Shown one piece after another: positions 1-58,637 of a stretch of DNA of 61,763 nucleotides. The stretch lies in sequence record SRR33789315_30, one strand, 5' to 3'. How positions within the stretch are numbered: the first letter of the stretch is position 1; every line of letters starts with the position of its first letter. The notes under the pieces are model-generated. The model was not told the DNA's origin, searched no databases, and saw only the letters and a list, made by a program, of their open reading frames with translations. Made by a program: the position numbers and the translations under genes.

Positions 1-1330
1 CTCCATAAAGTGTATCAAGTAAGGCTACTTTGGCTTCTATTTGCTTGCCATAAATATTTCTATAATGCTCTCCCCAGATAGATTCGAACAGTTCAGATTT
101 TTTGGTTTCATCTATAGAATATATAGAAGTTTTTACTGTTTTAGGAAGATTTTCTACGACAGCTTCTGGAATCTTTGGCTCTTCTACTGGTTGAAAAATT
201 TGTCGGGTATATACTAATTTTGGTTGGTTATTTTCACCTGATCCAAAATAGCGTACCCAAGTCTCACCCTCTTTAAAAATATCAAGTACCGCAAAACCTT
301 GGCCACTATAAGCAAATAGGCCATCTCCACCCAAGACGGCATATGATGCCTTAGAACCAGATCCAGAAATAATTTGCTTCACTTCATCATGTTCTATATA
401 CTGTAAAGAGTGTTCATGGCCAGAAGCAAAAATGATTCTATGGTGATCATCTATTAATACTTTAAGACGCTTCATCAACTCGTTATATTTTTCATTATAA
501 CGGTCTTGCTTAGAAATACCCCCTTGAGTTCTTATTTGTGTGATAAGTGATGCAAAAATGGGAATAGGAATTTTCTTTTGAGATGGAAATAAATGTTTAG
601 TTATGGCAAATTTACCTCCATGTACACCATTTGTATACATAGGATGATGCATTGCTATAAGAACAGTTTTTTCTTGGTTTTTTTTTATCTCACCCTCTAA
701 CTCAAGAAAAAATTTCTCTCGGGTTTTAATGTTACATTTATCATTAATTTTTGGGTTTTTATCCCAATCTTCAAGATACCACTGTGTATCTATGATAATC
801 ATATGAACCTCGTCATCAATATCATAACTCACCAATGGACAACCATCTTCAGGTAAAAAAACTTTTTTATCTTTTAATTTACTCTGAAAATACTTTTCTT
901 GTCTTTGTAGCCCTTCTACCCCGTGATTATACCAATCATGATTGCCTGGAATAAAAATAACTTCGCCTTTATAATCTTTAACTGCATTGTACTGAATATC
1001 CAGCCTATATTCTGAAAGTGCTCTAGACTCACTTTCTTTTGGAGGCATACCTTCTGGATAGATATTATCTCCTAAAAAAAGAGTAAAATGATCATTATTA
1101 TTTTCTACAGAATCCAAATAGTTTTTAAGCACTTTAAGTCCTACAGTGCTTTCTCCCATCTGCGCATAGCCTGCATCACCAACAAGATAAAAGGTCTTTA
1201 CTGGATTCTTTGTTTTAGGATAAATCTCTATATCAGACTGCTTATCTTTATATAAAGGGATGTCATAAGTAGCACAAGAAGCAAAAATGAAGAAGCTGAA
1301 AAATGTTAGAACTATGTTATTTTTTGACAT
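1..1330 (-). CDS. Calcineurin-like metallophosphoesterase lipoprotein (5' part; runs off the left edge)
   Basis: Not in the ORF track. Reverse strand from ATG at 1330 reads MSKNNIVLTFFSFFIFASC (lipobox), then the metallophosphoesterase motifs YLVGDAG, FLGDNIY, IPGNHDW, HHPMY and SGHEH; appears open to the window edge. Confidence 0.85.
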   Translation of the reverse strand, partial: MSKNNIVLTFFSFFIFASCATYDIPLYKDKQSDIEIYPKTKNPVKTFYLVGDAGYAQMGESTVGLKVLKNYLDSVENNNDHFTLFLGDNIYPEGMPPKESESRALSEYRLDIQYNAVKDYKGEVIFIPGNHDWYNHGVEGLQRQEKYFQSKLKDKKVFLPEDGCPLVSYDIDDEVHMIIIDTQWYLEDWDKNPKINDKCNIKTREKFFLELEGEIKKNQEKTVLIAMHHPMYTNGVHGGKFAITKHLFPSQKKIPIPIFASLITQIRTQGGISKQDRYNEKYNELMKRLKVLIDDHHRIIFASGHEHSLQYIEHDEVKQIISGSGSKASYAVLGGDGLFAYSGQGFAVLDIFKEGETWVRYFGSGENNQPKLVYTRQIFQPVEEPKIPEAVVENLPKTVKTSIYSIDETKKSELFESIWGEHYRNIYGKQIEAKVALLDTLYG

Positions 1331-1356
1331 CTACTATTTATAAGTATATTTATTAG

Positions 1357-1380
1357 TAATTTTCACTAAGCAGAAATGTA
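1357..1380. promoter_or_regulatory. Overlapping divergent Bacteroidota -7-like elements
   Basis: TAATTTTC on + (1357-1364) and TACATTTC on - (1373-1380), both variants of the TAnnTTTG consensus, lie in the 56-bp gap between divergent genes. Confidence 0.45.
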
Positions 1381-1386
1381 AGATAT

Positions 1387-2592
1387 ATGGCTGAAATAGC
1401 AGAAGCTAAAATAGAGATAGTAGAAAAAGCTGATGACTTTGTTCTTCAATTGTTCAAGGAAAAACTTCCTAATTCCTACCTGTACCATAATTACAACCAT
1501 ACGTATAGAGTGGTTAAAAGTACTAAAGAAATTATCGAAAATACTGAATTAAATGTTAAACAGAAAGAAGCTGTACTGCTTGCTGCCTGGCTGCATGACA
1601 CGGGTTATAGTGAGACGTTGGCTGAACATGAAGAAGCCAGTATTAAAATAAGCGAAGAGTTTTTGCGATCACAACAAGTAGATAGTGATCAAATTGAATT
1701 AGTGTCTTCACTTATTAGATCTACAAAGATGAGTGTTGAGCCCAAAAACATTCTAGAATGGATATTGAATGATGCTGATGCCTCTCATTTTGCGAAAGAT
1801 CATTTTGATAGTACAAGTGAATTTTTAAGACAAGAATTAAATCTTACAGGTGTTGCATCTTATAGCCCTGAAGAATGGCTGGATGAAAACATCAAGATGT
1901 TTACTAATACGCATAGGTTTTATACAGATTATGCACTAAAGGAATGGAAGCCACAAAAAGATAAAAATCTTATTAATCTTATAGAAGCTAAGCAAAAAAT
2001 AGAAAAAAAACTAGTTAAAGAAAAAACTAAAGCTAAACTAAAGGCCAAGTATAAAGACGAAAGCCCAGATAGAGGAATACAAACGGTATTTAGAACCACC
2101 CTCCGTAATCATATTAAATTAAGTGATATTGCCGATACGAAGGCGAATATTTTGCTGTCTGTTAATGCAATTATTATCTCTTTTGCTTTAGCAAACGTAA
2201 TTCCTAAGTTAGATTCACCTACTAATAGGCATTTAATGTTACCTACGTTGATTTTAGTTCTCTTTAGCGTAGCCTCTATAATTATGTCTATCCTATCTAC
2301 ACGTCCCAATATTACCAGTGGTGAGTTTACTCGTGAACAAGTCTTAAAAAGACAGGTTAATATCCTCTTCTTTGGTAATTTTCATAAAATGGAATATGAT
2401 GATTACAAATGGGCTATGAATGAAATTATTAGAGATAAGGATTATATATACGAAGCTCTAACTAAGGATTTATACTTATTAGGAATTGTCCTAAACAAAA
2501 AATATATGCTTTTACGTAAAACATATATTGTATTTATGACAGGAATTATAATCTCGGTTTTGAGTTATATATTAGCTTTTTGGTTAATTTAA
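1387..2592 (+). CDS. HD-domain protein fused to a Pycsar-type transmembrane effector domain (DUF5706/PycTM-like)
   Basis: N-terminal HD motifs YHNYNHT, WLHDTG, HEE, DAD. C-terminal IADTKANILLSVN, TM helices, LFFGNF, and KKY..LR..Y..F..G plus a terminal TM helix match the PycTM family. Confidence 0.85.
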   Translation: MAEIAEAKIEIVEKADDFVLQLFKEKLPNSYLYHNYNHTYRVVKSTKEIIENTELNVKQKEAVLLAAWLHDTGYSETLAEHEEASIKISEEFLRSQQVDSDQIELVSSLIRSTKMSVEPKNILEWILNDADASHFAKDHFDSTSEFLRQELNLTGVASYSPEEWLDENIKMFTNTHRFYTDYALKEWKPQKDKNLINLIEAKQKIEKKLVKEKTKAKLKAKYKDESPDRGIQTVFRTTLRNHIKLSDIADTKANILLSVNAIIISFALANVIPKLDSPTNRHLMLPTLILVLFSVASIIMSILSTRPNITSGEFTREQVLKRQVNILFFGNFHKMEYDDYKWAMNEIIRDKDYIYEALTKDLYLLGIVLNKKYMLLRKTYIVFMTGIIISVLSYILAFWLI

Positions 2593-4962
2593 AACTTTCA
2601 TTAATTCTTCATAGGTAACATTAGCAGTTCTAGATTTCTTTATTTTAGTCTCATAGTTATATACGACTTCAACTCTAAGAGCTCTTAACCCGACTACACC
2701 TTGAACATCTTCAAGTTTTACATCTTCTACCGTATTGCCTAAATAATTTTTGAATTGTAAATATTTAATATAGCGCATATATTCTTCTGCATCACTATCT
2801 TGAGTATATACAATAGCTATTTTACCCTTTTGTGTAATACGTTCTGTAGTGCCACTTATAAAAGCCTTATCAATACGTTTTTTTATAATCTCATATCTTG
2901 CATTGTAAGAACCATCTATATCAAATTTCTTTTCATCCATTCTATATCTTATAGTCAACGTCCTACTATATACTAAAATTAAAGATGCCGCATCTAAATG
3001 AAAGGTATCATCTTTTTGTATTTGATAGAAATGATTTTCCATTTCACACATAGTACTCAATTGCCATAACCTTAAGTTATACAAATAGATCTCGCTAAAT
3101 TTTTCTGAACGGGTCATAGACTCGCCTATATACATATTATGATCTACACCATCTGTTTTATAACGTTCAAAATAATGCGGGTATTTTTTTTGCGCATCTT
3201 GTTGTTTATTATCTATAAATGTTGCTAGATTCAAGTTGATTTTCTCAACTATTTCATCGTAAGTTTTTCTATGATCATATATTAAACCTGAATCCTTATT
3301 GATTGCCGCCTTATAATTATCTATTGTATGAGAAAGTTCATAAAACTTAGATTTTAAATGGTTTAGAAAAGGATTAACCTCATTTTGCAATAATTTTATT
3401 ACTTCAGATTCACTCGATGCGCTCAAATGATCTGAAATAGAATCGGTATACTCACTTACTCTAAATAAAACCTGCTCATAAATAGGTAACGGATTTAACT
3501 TAAAAGCTAGTTTTAAGATATCACTCACCATATTCAATTGCATGAGAATATCCTTTTGTATCGCTTTATTACGTTGTTCAGAAGAACCTATCATATCTAT
3601 CTGCCCATATAAAGGATATACGTCGTTAAAAGCAATATCCCTAAATGCAGCAAACCTACCCATGCCCTGTAATGCGATAAATCTTCTGGCTTCCCGTTCA
3701 AACACCCATAGTACACTAGGATGAATACTGGTACATTCACTTTGTATTACAGCCTTAATGCGGTTCTGTTTTTGATAACGCATTCTCTCAATTGTAGACA
3801 CAATATATGGCGTAACATCATCAAGCTTTATCGCATTAATGCTATGCAACTCGTTTTTTCTAATAGAAACTATTTCTAAAACGGCTAATAGCTTTTTCCC
3901 TTTTGCCAATGGAGCCAGAATACAACTTTTTATGCCTTTTGCAAGTAAATTCTCAGATAGAAGATTATAATCTGTATTAACGGCATAAGCTTCAACATCT
4001 GCAATACTAAAATAAGTCTTCTCAATGACTAAGGCATTGTAAGCATCTTTACATAATAAGGTGTTGCATTTATGCTTATTTTCTTTATCAAGAATATAAC
4101 TGGAAGCAAAATCTTTATCCATTTTAATAAAGCTTCTGTCCTCAAAATTAAGTTCGGTAAACCCTACTTTAAGATCAGCTATGTCAAATATTGATCTGAA
4201 AATTTCTTCAAATTTGGGATAACCATTAAGGTTATCTATATCGCTTTGACTAAGGAGATTACTTTTAAGTTCAGAAATAGCATCATCAATAGTAACATCT
4301 GTTAAAGTAAGAATTGTTAAACCTCGCATTACCCAACTATTAGGTGGAAAATATTTTTTCCAAAGGGTAATATTGTCAAAATTCTGAATTAATTCCTTAA
4401 ACATCTCACTAGTAACATCCACTGCCTGATCTGTAGGTTCTAATGTCACAAAATCATAATTCATCGTTATACGATAATGACGCAGTAAACCATTTTTTTC
4501 AGGAATATCATAATAAAGGGGCTTATTAAGATCAATATTATAGCCATAATAATTATTCAAAATTACTACACACGTATAGATGTAATAGGTCTCGTCATCA
4601 AAATTCCTGATTTCCAATTCAAAATCAGGTCCAGCATTTTCTAATATAGAAGAAAAATGCTGTGTAGGATTAAAAATAACATTATGAAATGGTATACATG
4701 CGGCCTTTATCTCATTTGCCGAAAGTGCAGCAGGAAACAAATTTTCTAAAATAAGATGAATGGGCTCTACATACTTTTCTAATTCTTTAAAATCTGAAAC
4801 ACCATCTATTAACTCAGGAAAAGATTGAGCATACCCCAACATAGACTCCATATACGATTTTAAAAAATCTGTATCAGAATTTTTAATTCTAGATATTAGT
4901 TTATCCACAATTTTATACAGACTAAACTTAATCTGTACAGGAAACTCTTCAGCCTTTTTCAT
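2584..4962 (-). CDS. GAF domain-containing protein with a putative divergent class III nucleotidyl-cyclase C-terminal domain
   Basis: GAF signature GIKSCILAPL...LLAVLEIVS. C-terminal LYGQIDMIGSS, RYKTDGVDHNMYIG, FDIDGSYNAR and GKIAIVY follow class III cyclase motif order (cyclase call is inference). Confidence 0.7.
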   Translation of the reverse strand: MKKAEEFPVQIKFSLYKIVDKLISRIKNSDTDFLKSYMESMLGYAQSFPELIDGVSDFKELEKYVEPIHLILENLFPAALSANEIKAACIPFHNVIFNPTQHFSSILENAGPDFELEIRNFDDETYYIYTCVVILNNYYGYNIDLNKPLYYDIPEKNGLLRHYRITMNYDFVTLEPTDQAVDVTSEMFKELIQNFDNITLWKKYFPPNSWVMRGLTILTLTDVTIDDAISELKSNLLSQSDIDNLNGYPKFEEIFRSIFDIADLKVGFTELNFEDRSFIKMDKDFASSYILDKENKHKCNTLLCKDAYNALVIEKTYFSIADVEAYAVNTDYNLLSENLLAKGIKSCILAPLAKGKKLLAVLEIVSIRKNELHSINAIKLDDVTPYIVSTIERMRYQKQNRIKAVIQSECTSIHPSVLWVFEREARRFIALQGMGRFAAFRDIAFNDVYPLYGQIDMIGSSEQRNKAIQKDILMQLNMVSDILKLAFKLNPLPIYEQVLFRVSEYTDSISDHLSASSESEVIKLLQNEVNPFLNHLKSKFYELSHTIDNYKAAINKDSGLIYDHRKTYDEIVEKINLNLATFIDNKQQDAQKKYPHYFERYKTDGVDHNMYIGESMTRSEKFSEIYLYNLRLWQLSTMCEMENHFYQIQKDDTFHLDAASLILVYSRTLTIRYRMDEKKFDIDGSYNARYEIIKKRIDKAFISGTTERITQKGKIAIVYTQDSDAEEYMRYIKYLQFKNYLGNTVEDVKLEDVQGVVGLRALRVEVVYNYETKIKKSRTANVTYEELMKVLN

Positions 4963-11436: not shown

Positions 11437-12486
11437 TTATAATTTAAAGAGAGGTGATATATTTGCGCTCTTTAATTTTTTAATAGAAAACAAGATATCG
11501 AGTACATAAATAGATAGAGCTAAAGCCAAGAAAAATTCTTTATACTCTGTTATCTCCCAAGTTCTCGCAAAATTTTCTCCCTTAATTAAAAAAAGAACTT
11601 GAGAAAGAATAATAATTAGTATGGTAAATATTAAAACATAACGTTCTTCTTCCTTTTTAGAATAAATGGAATAAAATGTTAAAATCAGTATAGTTCCAAA
11701 AAAAGTAATTTGTGTGAAAATGATATTCCACATATCAAAATTATATGCATAGGCTACTGTAGCCAAAACCATCACCACTGGATTAGCAATAAATATTTTC
11801 AAATCTTTTTTTTTAGCTACTCTGGGAAAATAATTGACAACAAAAGGTGAAAATATTAATAAAACCCAAACTCCAAAGTAGTAGGTATTTTCTAAATAAT
11901 TTGTCGCAAAATTGTGAATATTTAATTCGTGTTGCTCATTGCCTTTAAAGATTGCCGGAGTTTTTATATGAAAAACACGCTGAAACCAAGAAACTTCTTC
12001 CATTGCCACAATAAAAAATAGTATCGCAAAAAACAAAACCATGTTTTTAATGAAAAAGGAAATAGAGGGGTTTTTCTTAATTTTAATAAAGAGTTTTAAA
12101 AGGAGTATAAAATCTATAAAGAAGAAAAGGGCTGAAGCCCATTCCACAGGGTGATCTTCAAAAGCCAGGTAACTAAATACGGCTGGGATAAATAAAAATA
12201 AGAATAAACATATTAATGATCCTGTTAACACTATCGAAAGGATCCTTTTTGCGTGAGGCAGCCCTTTATAATCAAAAAAATATTCCTTAGTCTCATTTTT
12301 TAAATAAAAAAAGAAAAGAAAAGCTGTAATTGAAAAACAAATAACTAGGCTTCTCATTATATACTTTATACTAAGGATGGGCCAAGTTTCTTTAAAAACA
12401 CCAAGACCCATATTAATATCCCACACAATAACCGCAAATAACCCTAGAATACCTATTATTAAATAAAACAGAGGTATTTGTAACAA
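11437..12486 (-). CDS. Polytopic membrane protein of unknown function
   Basis: Roughly 9-10 hydrophobic segments; polar motif MEEVSWFQR...NEQHELNIHN; very AT-rich; TTG start is uncertain. Confidence 0.7.
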   Translation of the reverse strand: MLQIPLFYLIIGILGLFAVIVWDINMGLGVFKETWPILSIKYIMRSLVICFSITAFLFFFYLKNETKEYFFDYKGLPHAKRILSIVLTGSLICLFLFLFIPAVFSYLAFEDHPVEWASALFFFIDFILLLKLFIKIKKNPSISFFIKNMVLFFAILFFIVAMEEVSWFQRVFHIKTPAIFKGNEQHELNIHNFATNYLENTYYFGVWVLLIFSPFVVNYFPRVAKKKDLKIFIANPVVMVLATVAYAYNFDMWNIIFTQITFFGTILILTFYSIYSKKEEERYVLIFTILIIILSQVLFLIKGENFARTWEITEYKEFFLALALSIYVLDILFSIKKLKSANISPLFKL

Positions 12487-13714: not shown

Positions 13715-14512
13715 TCATCTTAAATGTTCCCCTCCGTCAACTGGGATTATAGTACCCGTAATCCACCTAGCTTCTGGCAATGCAAGAAGATAAACAGCAT
13801 TTGCTACATCTTCAGGCAGCGTTAAACGTTCATTAGGGTTATGTTTTAATGCCTCTTCAATAAGTTTATCGCTTCCCGGAATAAGCAATAAACTTTCGGT
13901 TTTAGTTACACCAGCTTCAATACAATTTGCAGTAATATGTAAAGGTGCTAGTTCATATGCTAGACTTCTTATTAGAGCTTCTAAAGTTGCTTTAGCTGCC
14001 CCAACAGCCGCATAGTTAGGCAAGGTTTTTCTACTTCCGGCACTTGTGAAAGCTAAAATGCTGGCTTGAGGAGAAAACAACTTTGCCTCAAGAAACTCTT
14101 CTACCCACGCATACAGACTTAATGCCATCGCATCTATAGTTAACGTGAAATCTTTTGCTGAAAGGTGGTTTTTTTGAATATCTGAAATTATAGGTTTTAA
14201 ATTGCCCTTTGCTATGCTATGCAGTAAAACCTTTACTTTTTTTGAATCTTTTATAAAAAACTCTTTGACACTTGAAATATTCTCATTTTGTAAAGCATCC
14301 AGATTAAAATCTACACACAGAACATTACATTCTTTAATCTCCTCAATTTCTTTTGCAAGTTTTTCTAATTGACTTCGTCTTGTGCGGTGTATTATACATA
14401 TATGCATCCCGTGAAGTGCCAATTTCTTAGCCGAAGCTAATCCTAGACCAGATCCGCCTCCTAATACGCATGCCCATTCATTTTGATTTGAAGAATTAAA
14501 ATTTTTTACCAT
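13715..14512 (-). CDS. SDR oxidoreductase, enoyl-ACP reductase (FabL/FabI-like)
   Basis: GGGSGLG Rossmann motif; YAAVGAAK (Yx6K, enoyl-reductase spacing); ITG.IIPVDGG; overlaps the PKS stop. Confidence 0.8.
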   Translation of the reverse strand: MVKNFNSSNQNEWACVLGGGSGLGLASAKKLALHGMHICIIHRTRRSQLEKLAKEIEEIKECNVLCVDFNLDALQNENISSVKEFFIKDSKKVKVLLHSIAKGNLKPIISDIQKNHLSAKDFTLTIDAMALSLYAWVEEFLEAKLFSPQASILAFTSAGSRKTLPNYAAVGAAKATLEALIRSLAYELAPLHITANCIEAGVTKTESLLLIPGSDKLIEEALKHNPNERLTLPEDVANAVYLLALPEARWITGTIIPVDGGEHLR

Positions 14513-15573
14513 TGTAACAAAATTCGCTGAGCAGAAAAACCAGGACCAAAGCTAAGCATTAATCCATATTCATCGGGTGGTACTTTTGATTTGAGAAACT
14601 CCTCAAGTACGATTAAAACCGTTACACTACTCATATTACCAAACTGCCGCAGTACTTCTTTAGTAATATTTATATTTTTTCCAAATACACCAAATAACTT
14701 TTCTACAGTTTCTATAATTTTTCTTCCTCCGGGATGAAATATAAGATGATCTATCTCATGGATCTCAAGATTATTTTGTTTCAAAAAAGGATTAATCACC
14801 ATTGGGAAATGTTCGGCTATCGTTTCGGGTACAGATTTATCTAAAATCATTTTTAAACCAAAATTTGTTAACTTAAAACCCATCATATGTTCTGCATCAT
14901 AAAAATGATACATCCCAGTATCCTTAATCACGGGCCCACTATCTTCTTCGCAAGAAGACAATAAAACACAAGCAGCTCCATCCCCAAAAATAGCAGCACT
15001 TACTACATTTGCCATCGAAAAATCAGTATGCTGAAAGGTAGCCGTAGGGCTTTCTACAGCAATTATAGCCGCGCGCTTTCCGCTATTTGCCTTTAAAAAA
15101 TCGTTGGCATAAACCATCGCTGATATGCCAGCAGCACATCCCATTTCGGTGACGGGTAAACGCACGATATCTTGTCGTAAATGCAATCTATTTATTAAAT
15201 AGGCGTCTAACGATGGGATCATTATACCCGTACAACTCACTGTAATAATATAGTCCAAATCTGTACCAGCCCATTGCGCGTCGCTTAATGCCTTCTGTAA
15301 AGCTTTCTCCCCTAAATTGGTCATTTCACGCGCATACACTTCATTTTTTTCTTCAAATGAGGTTGCTGTAAAAACTTCTTCTGGAGACAATATACTATAG
15401 CGTCTGTCAACACCAGCATTGCCAAATATTTTTTTGACTTTACGCCTAAAACGTTCATCCTGATTTATTAACCAAGTATCTAAAAGGGGAATAATCTCTG
15501 CTGTATCTCGTGTATACAAAGGCAATTGGTGAGCTACACCTATTACTTTGACTCCTGATTTTCTATTATCCAT
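14506..15573 (-). CDS. Type III polyketide synthase
   Basis: Catalytic Cys in EMGCAAG, His in FHPGG, Asn in FGNMSS; also IFGDGAA and SFGPGF. Confidence 0.93.
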   Translation of the reverse strand: MDNRKSGVKVIGVAHQLPLYTRDTAEIIPLLDTWLINQDERFRRKVKKIFGNAGVDRRYSILSPEEVFTATSFEEKNEVYAREMTNLGEKALQKALSDAQWAGTDLDYIITVSCTGIMIPSLDAYLINRLHLRQDIVRLPVTEMGCAAGISAMVYANDFLKANSGKRAAIIAVESPTATFQHTDFSMANVVSAAIFGDGAACVLLSSCEEDSGPVIKDTGMYHFYDAEHMMGFKLTNFGLKMILDKSVPETIAEHFPMVINPFLKQNNLEIHEIDHLIFHPGGRKIIETVEKLFGVFGKNINITKEVLRQFGNMSSVTVLIVLEEFLKSKVPPDEYGLMLSFGPGFSAQRILLQW

Positions 15574-16250
15574 AAATATCTATACGCCCATCGCCAATCC
15601 AAGGAATAGTTTTTTATATTCAATTTTTTAGCATAGTCTATTATTTCTTCTTTTTTAAATCCTCTTTTTATAGAAATTTTACCATCATGTCTCGCTAATT
15701 TTGTTTTCATCATCAACGGACTAATAATACTAAATGCCCCCAAAGCTACACGAGATCGATGTAGATCATTAATTACAATCCCCAATTTTGCTACACGTTG
15801 CATATTGCTTACTATTTGGAGCACTTCATCATCGTTAAAATGATGTAAGGTTAGTGAGCAAATAATTATATCATATGTTACATTTTCCTTTTTAAGATCG
15901 AGAATATCAGCAAGAACATACGTGATTTCTGGATAGACAGCAGATCTATTTTCTGCAATAGAAATACTAACTGGGTTTATCTCCCATCCTGTTAAGGTTG
16001 CTTTTATATCTTTTTTTCTAAAAGATCTAGCTAATATTTTAAGTAATTCTCCATTACCGCTTCCCAAATCTAATACACTGTATTTTTTTTGTGGATATAA
16101 CTGTAGGAGTTTTTGTACCCCACTAAGGGTACCTTTATGACCTCCCAACCAACGGTTAACCTTGTCAATATCACTCAACGCCTTTTTAAGGGTTTTACGT
16201 TTTATATTAGGTCCATCCATTAATTCGGGGATAAGCTCTCTATGCTTCAT
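15543..16250 (-). CDS. SAM-dependent methyltransferase (type III PKS-associated)
   Basis: VLDLGSGNG motif I, SLTLHHF, INDLHRS, HDGKISI.RGF. Confidence 0.88.
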   Translation of the reverse strand: MKHRELIPELMDGPNIKRKTLKKALSDIDKVNRWLGGHKGTLSGVQKLLQLYPQKKYSVLDLGSGNGELLKILARSFRKKDIKATLTGWEINPVSISIAENRSAVYPEITYVLADILDLKKENVTYDIIICSLTLHHFNDDEVLQIVSNMQRVAKLGIVINDLHRSRVALGAFSIISPLMMKTKLARHDGKISIKRGFKKEEIIDYAKKLNIKNYSLDWRWAYRYLWIIENQESK

Positions 16251-17370
16251 ACATTGACGGTTTGCCGTGTGTTTTTGCTATTATTTTTAAAAGAAGCCCT
16301 GGCATTAATTTTAAAGCTCTCACTGCATGATGAGTTAGCTGTTTATTTTGAATTCCCTTTTGTAATATCGCTCCTGTTGAAATTCTTGTAGAAAAATGCC
16401 TTTTCCAATGTTCAATATAGGCGTTTTCTAAAACATCTCTATTTTTTTCACCCGAATCAAAATAGGCATTAAAACAAGTGGTTAAAATCTTAGCACTCAT
16501 AATCGCCATAGCCATACCATTACCACATAAGGGATGAATAAGAGCTGCGCTATCTCCACACATGATTATATGATCCTTTATTAAAGATTTTCGCTCAAAT
16601 GAAATTTGGCTTATACTTAAACGCTTATCAAATATCATTTCTGAATGTGTGTAAAAGTCATTCAATATTGTATTTGCACGTAACACATGTTCCTCAAAAT
16701 CAGCAAAACCTTTATAAGATTGAAATATGGGCAAACTCACTAGATAACATACGTTTACTTTTCCATCTTCAATTTTTGAAACGCCACAATAGCCTCCTTT
16801 AAATGTAAAAAGGCCCACTGTATCACTAGACCATGTTCCTTTATAATGTGCTTTTACTGCAAGCCACTGACTTCTTTTTTTTATAAAATTACGAGATAAG
16901 GAAATATCTAGATTGCTGCGTTTACCATAGGCTCCTATTACAAATTTACTTTGATATGTCTTACCTGACTGGCATTCAACTACAAAGTGATCCTTAACAT
17001 AGTGTACTGCAACCACTTTATCTTGTCTCAGCTCACAATTTGAATCTTTTAGTTTTTCATAAAAAAGGTTGTCTAACGTATATCTACTTAAACCGAATCC
17101 CCCTAAAGGCAACCTTGTTTTAAGACTATTACCTTTTTCGTCTAACAAATTTAAATTGTGTATAGCTACCGCTCCAGCTGCATAAGGATCTATACCTAAT
17201 TCTTTTAAATAGGGAAGCACCTCATTAGAGATGTATTCGCCACACACTTTATGGGAAGGAAAGGTGCCTTTTTCAATGAGAGCTAAATTATAATCATATC
17301 GTGACAAATCCATTGCCAAGGTCAACCCTGCCAAACCTCCTCCTACAATTATAATATCTCTTTCTACCAA
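16240..17370 (-). CDS. NAD(P)/FAD-dependent oxidoreductase (geranylgeranyl reductase/monooxygenase-like)
   Basis: GGGLAG FAD motif, HKVCGEYIS, GDSAALIHPLCGNGMAMA; TTG start. Confidence 0.88.
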   Translation of the reverse strand: MVERDIIIVGGGLAGLTLAMDLSRYDYNLALIEKGTFPSHKVCGEYISNEVLPYLKELGIDPYAAGAVAIHNLNLLDEKGNSLKTRLPLGGFGLSRYTLDNLFYEKLKDSNCELRQDKVVAVHYVKDHFVVECQSGKTYQSKFVIGAYGKRSNLDISLSRNFIKKRSQWLAVKAHYKGTWSSDTVGLFTFKGGYCGVSKIEDGKVNVCYLVSLPIFQSYKGFADFEEHVLRANTILNDFYTHSEMIFDKRLSISQISFERKSLIKDHIIMCGDSAALIHPLCGNGMAMAIMSAKILTTCFNAYFDSGEKNRDVLENAYIEHWKRHFSTRISTGAILQKGIQNKQLTHHAVRALKLMPGLLLKIIAKTHGKPSMYEA

Positions 17371-22373: not shown

Positions 22374-23309
22374 ATGAATAAACGAATTCTTCATATCACC
22401 AATGGAGATAGTCTAACTGAACTATTAGATGAAATTCACCTAGATGGAGATATTATAGTATGGCGAGAAATGCTATGCGAAGGGCCTACTGTGCAAGAAG
22501 TAGGAACAGAAAAATTTATTTCCGTTCGTAAAAAATTTCTACTGGAGACCTATGGTATTTCTGAAGTAGATTATGAAGAGAAATTTGTTTCTCAATTAAA
22601 CAAACTCGCAACTATTGATAAATATGACGAAATAATTCTATGGTTTGAATTTGATTTATTTTGCCACATTAATATGCTTGCAGCTATAAGTTACCTGCTT
22701 CAACACAAAAGTAAAGAACCTATATATTTGGTATGTAGTGGTCGTGTAAGTGGTGAAAAAGAAATGAAAGGACTCTCAGAACTCAACGAGAAACAACTCA
22801 TGGCTCATTATGAAAGTAAAATTCGCCTGTCTGAAGATGACCTCGAAATGGCACATTTTATTTGGCAGCTCTACTGCGGAAACAACCCCAATAGATTAAA
22901 ACCAGAAATTAGAAAGTCATCCAACTTTAAGTATTTATCCAGTTGCATGCGCGCACATATAGAACGTTTTCCAAATGCCTTCACCGGATTAAACTCCCTA
23001 GAAACCAATATTCTTAAGCTCATTCAGAAATATAATATTAAATCAGAAAACCAACTCTGTGGTTATGTATTAAATTATCAAGGCTATTATGGTTATGGTG
23101 ATTCCCAAATTATTCGCATTTTAGATAAGCTAAAACCTTTCTATACCTTTTCTGAAACTGGTAAAATTGTTTTAACTAAAAAAGGTGAATTTGCCATTGC
23201 TGGAACCAAAAACTTCTATAGCGAATTGAAGAGCGACTCCGTTTTAGGCGGAACAAAAAAATACGACTACCTTTATAGCCCAGAAAGCCACCAACTTTTG
23301 AAGCTATAA
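22374..23309 (+). CDS. DUF1835-domain protein
   Basis: LHITNGDS, WREMLCEGP, LWFEFDLFC, GYGDSQ typical of the family. Confidence 0.75.
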   Translation: MNKRILHITNGDSLTELLDEIHLDGDIIVWREMLCEGPTVQEVGTEKFISVRKKFLLETYGISEVDYEEKFVSQLNKLATIDKYDEIILWFEFDLFCHINMLAAISYLLQHKSKEPIYLVCSGRVSGEKEMKGLSELNEKQLMAHYESKIRLSEDDLEMAHFIWQLYCGNNPNRLKPEIRKSSNFKYLSSCMRAHIERFPNAFTGLNSLETNILKLIQKYNIKSENQLCGYVLNYQGYYGYGDSQIIRILDKLKPFYTFSETGKIVLTKKGEFAIAGTKNFYSELKSDSVLGGTKKYDYLYSPESHQLLKL

Positions 23310-24245: not shown

Positions 24246-26300
24246 ATGAGTATTGATGTTGCCGTGCCACTAAAATCTAGAGATCTCAATTGGTTGAGTT
24301 TTAATGAACGTGTATTACAAGAAGCAGAAGATAAAAAACACAATCCGCTGTTTGAACGCATTAAATTCTTGGCTATCTTTTCATCTAATCTGGATGAATT
24401 TTTCAGAGTCAGGGTTTCCCAATTACGTCAAATCAAGAAAGTTCATAAAACTTTTCGCGACAAGCTGACCCTAAGACCTACTAAAACGGTTAAAGAAATC
24501 TTATTACAAGTTAAAAAGCAACAAGAACGCTTTGGTAACATTTACCAAAATGATATTCTTCCCGAATTAAAGGCGAATAATATAACGATCCTCCAATCAG
24601 ACGAAATAACTCAAACACATCTTACTAAAGCAGAAAAGTATTTTGACACAGAACTTTCAACACTTTGTACTCCTGAAATTGTATCTATATCCTCTCCAAA
24701 TAAGCCCTTTTTAGAAAATGAAAGCCTTTACTTTTTCATTACTTATGAAGATGAAAATAGTTTGGGATTTGTGAAGATTCCTACAGAAAGAACACAGCGA
24801 TTTCTTGATTTAGGAAAAAAAGATGGACAACATCATATTGCTTTTTTAGATGATATTATACGTCATAAAATAAATACAGATCAAGATCAAAAAATTACAG
24901 GCATCTATGAAATAAAATTATCCAGAGATGCAGAGCTCTATATGGATGATGAATTAGATGGAGAGCTTGCAGAACAAATTTCCAAATCTTTACCTCAGCG
25001 TTTTGACAATCAACCTACACGATTGCTCTATGACGCAACTATGCCCACGGATAAAATTAAAATACTTCGTAGATTATTAGGTTTAGGAAGAATAGATATG
25101 ATGCCTGGTGGTACATATCATAATTTTAAAGATTTTTTTCAATTTAAAGATCCTACTAACCATGTGAATTTGCATTATGAATCTAAACCACTTATTAAGC
25201 ATTTAGATTTTGATAAAGAGGCCGATTATTTCAAAGTAATCTCTAATAAAGATCAATTATTACATTATCCCTATATATCATTTATCTACTTAGAGAATTT
25301 TATAGAGCAAGCTGCATGGGATAAACAAGTAGAAGAAATTAAAATCTCTTTTTACAGAATAGCAGATAAATCTCGCTTAACTTCAGCCTTACTTAAAGCT
25401 TTAGAAAATGATATAAAAGTCACTATTTTTATAGAGGCCAAAGCGCGTTTTGATGAAGAAAACAATCTAAAATGGGGGAAAATATTTGAAAAGAATGGAG
25501 CACATGTAATCTATAGCTTTCCGAGAATAAAAGTGCATTCTAAAATATTACTCATTAAAAGAAAAGAAAGAAATAAGGTTAAAAGCTACGGTTATATTAG
25601 TACTGGAAATTTCAATGCACAAACCTCAAAAATATATGCCGATCACAGCCTTTTTACTGCAAATAAAAAAATTACAAAAGAACTAGATCGAGTGTTTGAA
25701 GTACTCGTAGGTAAATTAATAATTCCACGAAATAAGCACTTACTCATTTCCCCTTTTGGTACGCGAAGAACATTTGAAAAATTAATAGATCAGGAAATAG
25801 CTAATGCCCAAAAAGGCTTACCAGCAAAAATAACAGCTAAATTAAACAGTCTCGAAGATACCGAAATCATACACCGACTTTATAAAGCTAGTAACAGCGG
25901 AGTAACTATAAGATTAATTGTAAGAGGTTTTTGTTGTCTCATTCCGGGAATTGTAGGCTTAAGCGAGAATATACATATTACGAGTATCTTAGACAGGTAT
26001 CTCGAGCATGGGAGAATATACTTATTTCATAATAATGGTGAAGAGAAAATGTATATGGGCTCTGCAGACTGGATGGTACGCAATCTGGATCGCAGGATTG
26101 AAGTACTTACGCCTATTTATGATCCCGATGTCTTTATTGAATTAAAAGAAATACTTCAATTACAACTACAAGACAATTGTAAGGCTCGTATTCAAGATGC
26201 ACGAGAAACAAATACCTATGCCGTGCACCATGAGAATAAACCAAAAATAAGATCGCAATATGCGATCTATGATTATTTAAAAGAAAAGCATAAAAAATGA
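24246..26300 (+). CDS. ppk1: Polyphosphate kinase 1
   Basis: WLSFNERVL, SSNLDEFFRVRV, ARFDEENN, KVHSK, RYLEHGR, SADWM.RNLDRRIE. Confidence 0.95.
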   Translation: MSIDVAVPLKSRDLNWLSFNERVLQEAEDKKHNPLFERIKFLAIFSSNLDEFFRVRVSQLRQIKKVHKTFRDKLTLRPTKTVKEILLQVKKQQERFGNIYQNDILPELKANNITILQSDEITQTHLTKAEKYFDTELSTLCTPEIVSISSPNKPFLENESLYFFITYEDENSLGFVKIPTERTQRFLDLGKKDGQHHIAFLDDIIRHKINTDQDQKITGIYEIKLSRDAELYMDDELDGELAEQISKSLPQRFDNQPTRLLYDATMPTDKIKILRRLLGLGRIDMMPGGTYHNFKDFFQFKDPTNHVNLHYESKPLIKHLDFDKEADYFKVISNKDQLLHYPYISFIYLENFIEQAAWDKQVEEIKISFYRIADKSRLTSALLKALENDIKVTIFIEAKARFDEENNLKWGKIFEKNGAHVIYSFPRIKVHSKILLIKRKERNKVKSYGYISTGNFNAQTSKIYADHSLFTANKKITKELDRVFEVLVGKLIIPRNKHLLISPFGTRRTFEKLIDQEIANAQKGLPAKITAKLNSLEDTEIIHRLYKASNSGVTIRLIVRGFCCLIPGIVGLSENIHITSILDRYLEHGRIYLFHNNGEEKMYMGSADWMVRNLDRRIEVLTPIYDPDVFIELKEILQLQLQDNCKARIQDARETNTYAVHHENKPKIRSQYAIYDYLKEKHKK

Positions 26301-33358: not shown

Positions 33359-34516
33359 TTACTTTAAATTCTTTAAAATAAAATCAAGCTTTTTATTCTT
33401 GTTGTTATTGGCTACAAAAGACGTACTTAAATATTGCGCAGGTTCGGCAAGGCCTATTTCCTGTAATTTATTTATGGTTTCTAGATATTCTAAAGTTACT
33501 TTTCCAGTGAGTAAATTCATATAATTCACACCATTTTGACTGGCATCATAGATTTTCTTTAATCCGGTAAGATACAAGGCATCTTTAGTAAAGCCGCCAC
33601 CCCGATGCGCGCGTAAAGTCACTTGCCAAGACATACTTCTGTCTAATTTGTATTGATTATGTAAGAGATCAAATGTGTCTTTAAAATCATATCCTTTGCG
33701 TAAACTATCTGCTGCCAGCACACGATAGGCTAAAACTTTCAACCGTCGCATGGTGAGACACCCAGACATATATTCACTAAAAACGGCCAGACCTTCTTGG
33801 GTTTCGGTATTATTTACAAAACCGTTAGAGAAAATTTTTAAGGGCTGTTTTTTACCATTAAACGTGGTGACTAGATGTACCCCTATCTCATGATTAGCCA
33901 ATACCTGTAATTGATTTTCGCTAAAAACGTGGTTTTTCTTGAGCAACAAGGTTTCTGTAGCATTAAGTACCATAGCCTCTGCAGAAATATGTGTGCTTTG
34001 TTGTATTTTAAATTTAAAATCATAGCGCTCGCCAAAAACTTTAAAATAGGCTTCTGCCTCATTTGCCGTATAGCGCGGCAACATCTCATCTATAGTAAGA
34101 TCATCTTCAAAATGCAGAATAAACTTAGCGTTTTCTACATCGCGTTCTTTTGGAGTGCCAAAAACTTTTAAGGAATTATAATAAAACCGCTTGCCCTCAC
34201 CTATGCTTGCAAGACATTCTACTAAGCCTGAATATTCATAGATAATATCCTCATACAGTTTATGAATAACGGGATCTTTAATTTGCTCTAACGGAAGATT
34301 GAAAAATAACCGCTGCATTTGAAAAGGTTCAAACTTGAGTTTGCGGTAATTAAATTGTGGATTTTCAGCATATTTTGAAGCAAAAAACTTACGCTTTTCC
34401 TGTTCAATATTCAACGGATTGAGATAATACAACAACTCAACATCTCGCACCAGTTTATCTAACTGGTTATCAATATTAAAAAGGGTTGTATAATTCTGAA
34501 CAGCATCTATTTGCAT
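33359..34516 (-). CDS. QEGLA-motif / DUF1704 (MATCAP-like) metallopeptidase
   Basis: HEIGVH (HExxxH), TQEGLAVFSE, RGGGFTKDALYL.G. Confidence 0.88.
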   Translation of the reverse strand: MQIDAVQNYTTLFNIDNQLDKLVRDVELLYYLNPLNIEQEKRKFFASKYAENPQFNYRKLKFEPFQMQRLFFNLPLEQIKDPVIHKLYEDIIYEYSGLVECLASIGEGKRFYYNSLKVFGTPKERDVENAKFILHFEDDLTIDEMLPRYTANEAEAYFKVFGERYDFKFKIQQSTHISAEAMVLNATETLLLKKNHVFSENQLQVLANHEIGVHLVTTFNGKKQPLKIFSNGFVNNTETQEGLAVFSEYMSGCLTMRRLKVLAYRVLAADSLRKGYDFKDTFDLLHNQYKLDRSMSWQVTLRAHRGGGFTKDALYLTGLKKIYDASQNGVNYMNLLTGKVTLEYLETINKLQEIGLAEPAQYLSTSFVANNNKNKKLDFILKNLK

Positions 34517-34535
34517 CCTGCATATTTAAAAGGTG

Positions 34536-34543
34536 CAAATTTA
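34536..34543 (-). promoter_or_regulatory. Internal -7 promoter element upstream of the QEGLA gene
   Basis: TAAATTTG on - strand about 19 nt upstream of ATG 34516. Confidence 0.5.
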
Positions 34544-34569
34544 AACATCTCATGATAAAACGATCTCAA

Positions 34570-35397
34570 TTAGTCTGTTTTTGCCAAAAAAAGCTCAACA
34601 TGAGTGTTTATTTTACCACGCAAGCCTTTTTCTATAGCGGCAACCACTTCTGGAAAAATGATTCCGGTAAGCTCATCACAATAGATTTTTGAAAATTCTG
34701 TAGCCAGCACCAATACATTAGGAAAGTGCTGTGTGATATATTTTAAAAAATAACCATTACCTTGAAAGGTATCATTAATACCTGCTGTAGTAATATTGTT
34801 ATGTGGTAATTCTATTTGCGACAACATATCGCGCCAAGCTTCGGCTAATTCACCAAATCTTGCTTGATCTATATTTGTAGTACCTAGGTTTATAACAGGA
34901 ACTTCCCTATCCCAACGTTTCCAGTTATAAGAATGCATATCATAAACAACAGCTTTCCCGTGAATTGAAGTCACTTTTTCTACCAGAGCGTGTACCACCT
35001 CATAAAAAGCTTGATGTTTGGCTAGGCTTTGTTGTTTTTCGGCTTCAGAAAGAGGTGTTTTCCATAATTTTTTACCCCAAGCGTCTTCATATATTGCATT
35101 TTCGGGATCGCGATTAAGATCATATTCAAAACGACTGTCACAACCCGCAATAACGATAGGATGGGATTTTACAAAATAGTTAGTACAGGGATCTTCTTCA
35201 TACCAGCGATCATATTCACTATGCAAACATTTTTCCCATAAGTCTTTTCTAAATTGGTGTCCATTGTGCACGGCACCACAAATATAAGGGACAAATTCTT
35301 CTACTTTAAGCGTAAAGGAATAATCACTGGCGACAGCTTCAAAAGTTTCTCCGTTTTTTATTTTAGCTATAATTTCTGCTACTGTAAGATATTGCAT
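34570..35397 (-). CDS. N-formylglutamate amidohydrolase family protein
   Basis: AVHNGH, EEDP.T, SRFEYDLNR, YDMHSY, NLGT, ND.FQG, LATE motifs of the FGase (zinc carboxypeptidase-like) family. Confidence 0.85.
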   Translation of the reverse strand: MQYLTVAEIIAKIKNGETFEAVASDYSFTLKVEEFVPYICGAVHNGHQFRKDLWEKCLHSEYDRWYEEDPCTNYFVKSHPIVIAGCDSRFEYDLNRDPENAIYEDAWGKKLWKTPLSEAEKQQSLAKHQAFYEVVHALVEKVTSIHGKAVVYDMHSYNWKRWDREVPVINLGTTNIDQARFGELAEAWRDMLSQIELPHNNITTAGINDTFQGNGYFLKYITQHFPNVLVLATEFSKIYCDELTGIIFPEVVAAIEKGLRGKINTHVELFLAKTD

Positions 35398-35409
35398 AAT
35401 AATTCGGTT

Positions 35410-36441
35410 TTAAGCCTCATCTACATGCTTGCGCAACTTGGCTCTTCTATCCATACGGTTAACGCGCGAAAGCACCATATCTTCTACAAAGTTGATTACC
35501 TTCTCGTGTACTTTCACCTTATAAACACGATTCATATACGTAATCCCGCCCGGACTCATAACATTTACCTCAACAAGCATTCCATTAATCACATCAATCC
35601 CAACAAAATACAAACCATCTTTAACCAATTTTGGTCCAATTTTACGGCAAAGTTCTTTTTCCTTTAGAGTCATAACGTGCTTGGCAATGGTTCCGCCCGC
35701 ACTTATATTAGAACGGTGATCATCTTCTCCGGGAACGCGTCGCATAGCGCCTATGGGTTTTCCGTTAAGCATAAGAATACGTACATCGCCCTGATCTGCT
35801 CCTTCTATATAATCTTGAAGAATGACATAGTTTGAAGTACCATCTTTATTTGTAATGTAGAAATCCAGCAACGAACTAATACTGTTCATCGCATTTTTTT
35901 CGATTAAAATAACCCCAGAACCTCCAAAACCATTGAGTGGTTTTAATATCATCTTGTCTTTATCTGACTCTTTGATCATTTTAAGGAGATAATCTTTATT
36001 CTTAGTTACATGGGTTTTGGGAATAAATTCATTGTTTTCGTCCTCAAAAACAGCAGTATATAATTTATTATTTGCTCTGCGGATTCCGTCTATATCATTC
36101 ATGATAAAAACATCATCTTTTACCGAATCTAAGAAATTGAGCATGATGGTATCTAATGGCGGATTACTGCGTAGAATAATAACATCAAACCCCGCAAGCG
36201 GAAGCATTTCATCTCTAAATTGTGCTTTTGTATGAAACGTTTTTTGTGACGAAGAAATCTTCTCTGCCCGTACAAGCACTTTACAAAATGCATACGTAAC
36301 ACTGTCTCTTATAGTAAGATTTGCAGGAGTAATTATAGCTACACCGTGCCCGCGCTTAGCGCATTCGCGTACAAGAGATAAAGAAGAATCATCCTCAGGC
36401 TTGATCTCTTCCCAAGGATACATCAGAAAACATACATTCAT
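35410..36441 (-). CDS. Glutathione synthetase-like ATP-grasp ligase
   Basis: GshB-like N-domain (FLMYPWE..., LRSNPPLD), KPLNGFGGSGV, QDYI, GDVRI, RSNISAGG, GIDVI, EVNV.SPGG. Substrate not established. Confidence 0.85.
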   Translation of the reverse strand: MNVCFLMYPWEEIKPEDDSSLSLVRECAKRGHGVAIITPANLTIRDSVTYAFCKVLVRAEKISSSQKTFHTKAQFRDEMLPLAGFDVIILRSNPPLDTIMLNFLDSVKDDVFIMNDIDGIRRANNKLYTAVFEDENNEFIPKTHVTKNKDYLLKMIKESDKDKMILKPLNGFGGSGVILIEKNAMNSISSLLDFYITNKDGTSNYVILQDYIEGADQGDVRILMLNGKPIGAMRRVPGEDDHRSNISAGGTIAKHVMTLKEKELCRKIGPKLVKDGLYFVGIDVINGMLVEVNVMSPGGITYMNRVYKVKVHEKVINFVEDMVLSRVNRMDRRAKLRKHVDEA

Positions 36442-36507
36442 ACAAATGATCTTAGTAAATTGAATACCTATCCTTTAAAGATAATAAACTTTGTGTTTTA
36501 ATATCTT

Positions 36508-37971
36508 TTACTTTTTATGAGGCACTTTATCTTCCTCTATATCCCAAGCTTTATCCGGATCTTTTGCAGGATCATAATGTAGCATCCCTTCTCCTTTAGC
36601 AATTATAGAAGAAACCGTAGCGTCACCAGTTACATTTACAACGGTACGACACATATCTAGAATACGGTCAACAGGAAGAATAATCCCAATCCAAGCCGGA
36701 TTTAATCCTACAGATTGCAACACAATAATCAACATAACCAGACCAGCACTAGGAACCGCCGCAGAACCTATAGAAGCTAATGTAGCGGTCAAAACAATCG
36801 TCAATTGTTGCCCTATGGTCAAATCAATCATATGCAGTTGTGCTAAAAAGACCACAGCTACTGCCTGATACAAACAAGTACCATCCATATTTACCGTAGC
36901 ACCTATAGGCAACACAAAACTGGCGATTTTATTATCTACGCCCAGATTATCCTCAACACACTCCATAGTTACTGGAAGTGTAGCCGCACTACTCGATGTA
37001 GAAAATGCCAACGTTTGTGCCGGTCCCATCGCTTTAAAAAATCCTTTATACGGAATTACACGTACCAAAAGTTTAATCAATAACGGATAAACAATAAAGA
37101 TCATCACCATTAAGCCTAGAAAAACAGTAAGCGAATACCAACTTAAGCCTTTAAAAATTTCGACTACTTTACCTATATCATCTCCCGCCATTTTACTTAC
37201 CACTCCAGCAAGTAATGCAAACACAAAAAACGGTGCGGCTTGCATAACAAGATCTACCATTTTAAGAAAAACCTCCATTATGCCATCTACAGCCTTAGTG
37301 ATAGGAGCCGATTTTTTATTGTCTATAAAGAGTAAACTTATCCCAAAAAAGAGTGCAAAGAAAATCACCTGAAGCATTCTTCCGTTATCTGCAAGAGCAT
37401 CAAAAAAGTTTTGTGGGACTAAATCTACGAGTGGTTGTAAAGGACCTTGTCCTTTAGTTTGGTCTGCAGTTGCCATTTTTTCGTTAACCGTGGCATTGAT
37501 ATCTGCTTTAGAAAGATCTGTTATTTCTCTGGCACGTTCAACAAAAGCAGGGTCTTTTAAATAATGGATTCCGTCTTTAATTTCCAGATTTTGAGAATCT
37601 GCCCAAATTTCATAACTAATCCTATTGTCTATTCGGCTTTGCTCATCGACCAATTTTCCGGGCTTTATGATATTAACCAAAGCCAAACCTAAAGACACGG
37701 CAAGCAACGTAGTAATGAGATAGGCTAGCAAGGTTTTGCCGCCCATTCTTCCCAGACTAGAAGGATCTCCAATATTTGCAACGCCATTGATGATACTGAA
37801 AAAAACCAGCGGTACAGCAATTAATTTTAAGAGATTGATGAAAATGGTACCAAAAGGGGCGATCCAATTTACCGTGAACTGGCTCCATCCCATTGTACTG
37901 GACAACAGGGCCCAGATAATACCCAATACCAATCCTATTATAATCTTCCAGTGCAGTGCCAGTTTCTTCAT
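36508..37971 (-). CDS. Dicarboxylate/amino acid:cation symporter (GltP/DAACS family)
   Basis: AFSTSSSAATLP, GATVNMDG, DRILDMCRT.VNVTGD. Confidence 0.93.
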   Translation of the reverse strand: MKKLALHWKIIIGLVLGIIWALLSSTMGWSQFTVNWIAPFGTIFINLLKLIAVPLVFFSIINGVANIGDPSSLGRMGGKTLLAYLITTLLAVSLGLALVNIIKPGKLVDEQSRIDNRISYEIWADSQNLEIKDGIHYLKDPAFVERAREITDLSKADINATVNEKMATADQTKGQGPLQPLVDLVPQNFFDALADNGRMLQVIFFALFFGISLLFIDNKKSAPITKAVDGIMEVFLKMVDLVMQAAPFFVFALLAGVVSKMAGDDIGKVVEIFKGLSWYSLTVFLGLMVMIFIVYPLLIKLLVRVIPYKGFFKAMGPAQTLAFSTSSSAATLPVTMECVEDNLGVDNKIASFVLPIGATVNMDGTCLYQAVAVVFLAQLHMIDLTIGQQLTIVLTATLASIGSAAVPSAGLVMLIIVLQSVGLNPAWIGIILPVDRILDMCRTVVNVTGDATVSSIIAKGEGMLHYDPAKDPDKAWDIEEDKVPHKK

Positions 37972-58498: not shown

Positions 58499-58637
58499 AG
58501 ATTTAGCAAGCAAACGACATAAGATTAACTTTTTAATTATGTGTTTTAACTACTACTTAACATCATAACTTGTTTTAGCCCTTTATTTTTGCTGGGCTAT
58601 AACAAATTGTACTATTTACTATTTGTTTGTATCTCTT

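Follow-up and report, generated by a model that had tools for sequence, protein, structure and literature searches.

The closest described systems to the locus reported here are Pycsar (PycC and PycTM) and Pucsar (PucC and PucTM), in which a gene for a class III-fold cyclase lies beside a gene of PF18967 for a protein with three transmembrane helices (3-TM). In the part of the literature considered here, the pyrimidine-selecting pocket residues are F100/R142/Q144 in EaPycC and Y50/D94/R97 in BcPycC (PMC11224242). The main text of the Pucsar preprint describes PucTM as a cylinder of six 3-TM subunits with a channel of 15 Å, the ligand-bound state not being solved there, and the terms “HD domain”, “GAF”, “Bacteroid” and “Flavobacter” are absent from it (bioRxiv 10.64898/2026.08.12.744502). 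We analyzed a locus with the same pairing at positions 1 to 4,962 of a stretch of 61,763 nucleotides from sequence record SRR33789315_30 (the window). It encodes a membrane protein with a fused HD domain (HD-PycTM; 1387-2592, + strand, 401 amino acids), a protein with a GAF domain and a cyclase fold (GAF-cyclase; 2584-4962, − strand, 792 amino acids), and a metallophosphoesterase (1330 to 1, − strand) of which 443 amino acids are visible, the open reading frame (ORF) being open at the window edge. The locus is built like Pycsar and is not a member of it, but a variant of the cyclase plus transmembrane-effector kind. The module is real and highly conserved; what the window contains is one copy of an envelope module that Bacteroidota inherit, and not a phage-defence island. 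As the three genes are inherited together in most flavobacteria, they probably form an everyday envelope signalling circuit rather than a defence system. A literature search, which left subscription papers mostly uncovered, returned no paper on this locus.

The named relatives nearest to the module are Leeuwenhoekiella and Flavimarina with about 70% identity, which places the window in a member of the Flavobacteriaceae. Linkage was counted in 27 loci around close homologues, in 151 genomes of the family and in 300 genomes of the phylum; because related genomes are not independent, it is given as counts and not as p-values. HD-PycTM was found in 26 of the 27 loci (the 27th ends at a contig edge) and the phosphatase in 24. 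Within the family sample GAF-cyclase and HD-PycTM each occur in 117 of 151 genomes, and these are the identical 117 genomes. The two genes are less than 1 kb apart in 110 of them, further apart in five and on different contigs in two; 101 of the 110 adjacent pairs are arranged tail-to-tail and nine are co-directional. Twelve of the 20 listed genomes without both genes are ≤2.4 Mb in size compared to two of the 117 that carry both, with 14 more negatives outside this listing. For the phylum, 112 strong PycTM matches were kept apart from 12 weak ones (124 together), and a cut of E ≤1e-140 was applied to the full-length relatives of the metallophosphoesterase (kinase-barrel proteins, see below). 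This yielded GAF-cyclase in 46 genomes, PycTM in 124 and the kinase-barrel in 118. All 46 GAF-cyclase genomes contain PycTM and 45 contain the kinase-barrel; GAF-cyclase and PycTM lie within 15 kb for 32 of 48 matches, far away from each other for six and on another contig for ten. The linkage in the 27 loci and the 151 family genomes is far beyond chance, which rules out a chance cluster, and the co-occurrence and linkage across Bacteroidota on which the original prediction hinged are borne out. Over the 27 loci, the pairwise identities of each of the three proteins are correlated with those of the other two at 0.92-0.95, as would be expected under joint vertical descent; this is no proof of co-evolution.

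The original prediction had further described a Pycsar-related circuit placed among housekeeping genes rather than in a defence island. The relationship stands with respect to the effector, which belongs to the PycTM/pJV1-SpdB3 3-TM family, and to the class III cyclase fold. It does not extend to the PycC family or to a patchy, mobile context, and membership in Pycsar failed in the tests run. Even with E values up to 1 allowed, no PADLOC family matches the 792-residue protein; the true PycC proteins encoded in Bacteroidota loci reach E 1e-62 to 1e-135. As a control we inspected 20 weaker PycTM matches: six stand beside a high-scoring PycC, one of these next to an integrase. The module cyclase differs from PycC and PucC in its fusion to GAF and its long helical insertion, and it appears to lack the PycC pocket residues when positions are mapped by motif spacing; the module effector is fused to HD, the genes are convergent, and an Omp85 phosphatase-kinase accompanies them. 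True PycC-PycTM pairs form a separate set in Bacteroidota.

The module could nevertheless be an old and fixed anti-phage or general stress system, with infection triggering the cyclase, the pore depolarizing the cell and the HD domain setting a threshold. Every tested pair of a cyclase with PycTM or PucTM is an abortive-infection system according to the portions of the two sources used here (PMC11224242; bioRxiv 10.64898/2026.08.12.744502), and the PycTM (E 7e-18) and CBASS 2TM models of PADLOC match the 401-residue protein. We consider such a system very improbable, since the module is near-core in the family, is found nearly always once per genome in a housekeeping setting, and is convergent instead of operonic in the tail-to-tail pairs counted above. 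One PycC model was found in 1 of 151 family genomes, a lower bound as it is one of several models. A quick tree built from 93 TM domains has terminal branches with a median length of 0.17, compared to 1.3-4.8 for the six PycC-linked effectors, which indicates slow evolution; 12 near-redundant loci were left out of this tree, sampling density is uneven and the long branches are unsure. Neither of the two module proteins searched has a match in 50,697 phage records, and their plasmid matches (two and six records) are all large non-mobilizable replicons. Around the module, the genes as far as 21 kb and the 33 ORFs scanned beyond have ordinary metabolic or housekeeping functions, as had been supposed, and the GC content of the module (30-33%, compared to 30-40% elsewhere in the window) gives no island signal. 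On this reading, the label “Pycsar system effector family protein” in most Flavobacteriaceae genomes does not point to a defence system.

The GAF-cyclase is composed of an N-terminal region (residues 1-221), the GAF domain (residues 222-404; 3751-4299, − strand), a conserved helical linker and the class III nucleotidyl-cyclase fold (residues 443-768; 2659-3636, − strand), which is interrupted by a helical insertion of about 110-130 residues between helix 1 and strand 2. The GAF domain, poorly conserved in sequence, is found by family profile and by fold, the cyclase domain by fold only. No match above cut-off was obtained for the protein in NCBIfam, PADLOC or a copy of Pfam without PF27174. 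PF27174, with the label “YeeD” (32% of cluster members), is linked to the protein by precomputed Pfam annotation and by Atlas, which is blank for residues 1-221 so that no domain is assigned there; this curated domain may cover part of the protein or of its cyclase domain. Foldseek with the whole model gave low-TM multi-domain matches only, and a viral structure library gave no clear match. The predicted cyclase likeness gains weight from D456 at the end of strand 1 (codon 3595-3597, − strand) and D604 in the hairpin of strands 2 and 3 (codon 3151-3153, − strand), which are invariant in 138 of 138 homologues and stand where we would expect the metal-binding aspartates of a cyclase. On a basic helix of the domain (N687-K699, − strand), the counterpart of helix 4, N687 is kept in 135 of 138 homologues and R689, K694, K695 and R696 are conserved, with a spacing different from the helix-4 transition-state pair N-x3-R; together with K699, R708 and R763 the four basic residues form a family-specific basic patch. 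Pocket positions were assigned by motif spacing and not by residue-level structural alignment: D1-2 is variable (Q454, non-aromatic), D2-4 is K/R and D2-2 is K. K/R600 and D681 are located at what we take to be adenine-selecting positions. Profile-profile alignment of the cyclase region with four small cyclase alignments from the loci gave no match (best probability 6.8%), so that residues are placed in register by motifs and secondary structure. A homodimer prediction of residues 405-770 with ATP and Mg, for which the alignment was not used (score 0.01, mark 0.32), is evidence neither way.

There is no detectable sequence likeness to the sensor-fused physiological class III adenylyl/guanylyl cyclases, such as CyaB, CyaC and Cya2 and the GAF-regulated cyclases of cyanobacteria. 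Compared to these, the module cyclase has the insertion and the altered helix-4 motif, and its partner is a PycTM-type membrane protein, not a CRP/CNBD protein. The basic patch, the out-of-register helix motif and the insertion, all without counterpart in canonical cyclases, are a hint towards an active enzyme whose product is something other than a 3',5'-cyclic mononucleotide, e.g. an oligonucleotide, a polyphosphate-linked nucleotide or an adenylylated target, or towards signalling to HD-PycTM by contact; ppk1 as a recurrent neighbour points in the same direction. We regard this as unlikely, because the ordinary class III cyclases found in the same slot beside PycTM have intact N-x3-R motifs and suit a diffusible cyclic mononucleotide better. 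Independently of these considerations, a full-length GAF-cyclase homologue (31% identity) was observed outside Bacteroidota on plasmid pHIC of Haliovirga abyssi (Fusobacteriota; L143:6971-9292), where it adjoins transposases and the partner genes are not beside it; Chondrinema likewise has a module homologue without partners.

The slot cyclases were counted in loci from 20 genomes, out of 29 in which a long PycTM is present and the GAF-cyclase is missing. A cyclase-type gene is present in 11 of the 20: nine encode a class III cyclase with four TM helices, one a protein of the DUF2652 type in which motifs resemble those of cyclases, and one a class III cyclase domain fused to PycTM in a single frame of 356 amino acids (L069:7245-8315). 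This fusion represents a minimal construct for cyclase-effector coupling. In loci with a short PycTM a cyclase-TPR gene lies between PycTM and the phosphatase-kinase-barrel in 6 of 20, and no cyclase was found within 14 kb in the other 14. Plasmid pFA2 of Fulvitalea axinellae has the order metallophosphoesterase, a gene of 302 amino acids, HD-PycTM and an annotated adenylate/guanylate cyclase. The place of the GAF-cyclase in the module can be taken by other class III cyclases. That several unrelated cyclase architectures occur in one slot argues more strongly than any other observation for a cyclase function of the GAF protein and for a diffusible nucleotide as the link. We also observed that the 4-TM and TPR slot cyclases all possess Q instead of K/E four residues before the second Asp (Q-Y/H-V/Y-G-D; L064, L065, L066, L068, L072, L073, L074, L081, L104, L113 and L115, and L084, L087, L089, L091, L092 and L098), a sequence feature that may reflect an unusual base specificity. 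More divergent PycTM genes have as neighbours a receiver-cyclase and a TPR-cyclase in which the K-x-I-G-D motif is canonical (L130:3285-4960, L138:3219-5626), so that PycTM is paired with physiological-looking cyclases more than once.

HD-PycTM matches HD (Pfam E 2.5e-7; residues 33-134; 1483-1788, + strand) and the PycTM (pJV1-SpdB3-type) 3-TM module by PADLOC and Pfam (PF18967 E 4e-34; residues 238-398; 2098-2580, + strand), with TM helices at residues 255-273, 285-303 and 381-399 by hydropathy. The proposed HD part is intact: the H...HD...D metal ligands are complete (H38, H70, D71, D129/D131), and for each of H34, H38, H70, D71, H81, E82, D129 and D131 the residue is conserved in 62-65 of the 65 sequences compared. 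With three TM helices and no signal peptide found in the protein, the HD domain should be cytoplasmic. In two loci, L097 and L098, HD and TM parts are separate adjacent genes. Stand-alone PycTM-like genes of 186-224 amino acids with no adjoining cyclase were also seen (L126-L129, L133-L135), surrounded by housekeeping genes such as catalase-peroxidase, msrB and RNA methyltransferases.

The metallophosphoesterase gene is visible for its 5' third only; the rest is known from L007 and relatives, whose full-length proteins comprise 1,190-1,380 amino acids (about 1,235) and continue after the phosphatase part with a PI4K/CotH/HipA-like kinase domain, a beta-rich linker domain and an Omp85 barrel. 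The Metallophos domain (Pfam E 2e-9) contains all five purple-acid-phosphatase blocks (GDAG 51-54, GDNIY 87-91, GNHD 129-132, MHH within AMHH 227-229 and GHEH 304-307), which are conserved in 45-46 of 46 sequences, and its best PDB matches are TRAP/ACP5 (E 3e-14); no entry named CpdA or Rv0805 is among the 20 PDB matches. A lipobox cysteine (Cys19) can be read from the sequence, and the lipoprotein signal together with the Omp85 barrel implies that the protein works outside the cytoplasm. These features rule out a stand-alone cytoplasmic phosphodiesterase of the CpdA type and speak against the messenger off-switch originally proposed for this gene. As the available account of CpdA describes a looser PAP-like motif (PMC3726613), the protein may still have phosphodiester activity.

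A Metallophos domain (PF00149) and an Omp85 barrel in one chain, as seen in the relatives while the window holds the first 443 residues, resemble the Omp85 “Metallo” subfamily. In the part considered here, Heinz and Lithgow 2014 name this architecture, call it a metalloprotease without known role and report conservation at genus level and spread by transfer (PMC4104836). In contrast, the present family is of the purple-acid-phosphatase type, has a kinase-like domain absent from that part of the account, and occurs in 118 of 300 phylum genomes tied to PycTM. In contrast to TRAP/ACP5 and to the atypical kinases PI4K-II, CotH, CtkA and HipA, a single outer-membrane protein of bacteria combines both kinds of domain here. 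Several of the genomes G001, G223, G279, G295, G063, G047 and G159 have two to three kinase-Omp85 copies and some a kinase-only paralogue of about 429 amino acids; HD-PycTM is mostly single copy.

PycTM and kinase-barrel form the tightest pair phylum-wide, being together in 104 of 112 strong-PycTM genomes and in 104 of 118 kinase-barrel genomes, and lie ≤7 kb apart in 74 of 105 genomes compared that have both. In 60 distant loci the genes that recur nearby are those for a phytase-like propeller of the SdiA-regulated type (21), PAP2 (15), SixA (11) and PPK1 (11), with CotH and a phosphate-selective porin also nearby. Taken with the many loci that have no nearby cyclase, this could mean that the core is a two-membrane phosphate or phospholipid machine made of a PycTM channel, the phosphatase-kinase and a propeller lipoprotein, in which PycTM is not nucleotide-gated and the cyclase is a passenger. 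The exact co-presence and co-absence of GAF-cyclase and HD-PycTM in the 151 family genomes, and the convergence of unrelated cyclase architectures on the locus with one fused to PycTM, make such a machine improbable.

We therefore favor, at somewhat less than an even chance for the proposal as a whole, a circuit in which a GAF-controlled cyclase acts on HD-PycTM through a cyclic mononucleotide. The cyclase would be switched on when its GAF domain receives a small molecule or a stress signal, and its product would be a 3',5'-cyclic mononucleotide, most likely cAMP because of the presumed adenine-selecting K/R600 and D681. The nucleotide may bind to the cytosolic portion of HD-PycTM, which would sit in the inner membrane as an oligomer (a hexamer if it resembles PucTM) and could then control a non-lethal conductance or transport step there. 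Local hydrolysis by the fused HD domain would reset the switch. The outer-membrane phosphatase-kinase would remove and add phosphate on periplasmic or surface substrates, as a part of the regulated process and not as a means of degrading the messenger. Judged from the neighbour genes, this process could most likely be phosphate or phosphoester handling at the envelope. If true, a core nucleotide-signalling pathway of common marine, soil and freshwater bacteria has been hidden under the name “GAF domain-containing protein”; the circuit would provide the first non-lethal role for PycTM-type pores and a tractable model of cyclic-nucleotide gating, and would establish a kind of Omp85 protein in which a kinase domain is paired with a phosphatase domain. 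A wider version seems somewhat unlikely to us: a phylum-wide second-messenger circuit across both membranes, in which the cyclase product gates a self-resetting HD-PycTM channel coupled to the Omp85 kinase-phosphatase barrel, and which is the physiological stock from or alongside which the lethal Pycsar and CBASS TM effectors evolved. The nucleotide of the unrecognised class III cyclase family would then perhaps be neither cAMP nor cGMP.

Regarding the layout of the locus, the tight packing described in the original prediction was recovered with the same distances from the ORFs: the metallophosphoesterase and HD-PycTM genes are head-to-head across a gap of 56 bp (1331-1386), and HD-PycTM and GAF-cyclase overlap tail-to-tail by 9 bp (2584-2592), where a terminator scan gives no site, as predicted. 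A promoter-like element for HD-PycTM, TAATTTTC (1357-1364, + strand), resembles what we take to be the Bacteroidota -7 promoter element TAnnTTTG. In close relatives the gap measures 54-63 bp and a similar element, TAnnTTT(C/G), lies on the strand of HD-PycTM, the exact TAnnTTTG being mostly absent from their gaps. A sigma-70 scan, the model of which does not cover Bacteroidota promoters, gave fewer sites than in shuffles.

Elsewhere in the window, a PPK1 (polyphosphate kinase) gene (24246-26300, + strand) is located 19 kb from the module and outside the cluster, and overlaps an NMT1/THI5-like binding-protein gene. No Pfam match at the thresholds used was found for the ORFs 11437-12486 (− strand, 349 amino acids), 22374-23309 (+ strand, 311 amino acids) and 58623-60065 (+ strand, 480 amino acids), the first of which lies in a low-GC stretch and encodes a multi-pass membrane protein. 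A tight cluster at 13715-17370 (− strand) contains an FAD-dependent oxidoreductase, a methyltransferase, a type III polyketide synthase and an enoyl-ACP-reductase-like short-chain dehydrogenase/reductase, presumably a small lipid pathway of the alkylresorcinol/pyrone type. One run at 33359-37971 (− strand) comprises a dicarboxylate symporter, a glutathione synthetase-like ATP-grasp protein, an N-formylglutamate amidohydrolase and a MATCAP-like carboxypeptidase, and is a possible module for peptide or glutamate tagging and its removal.

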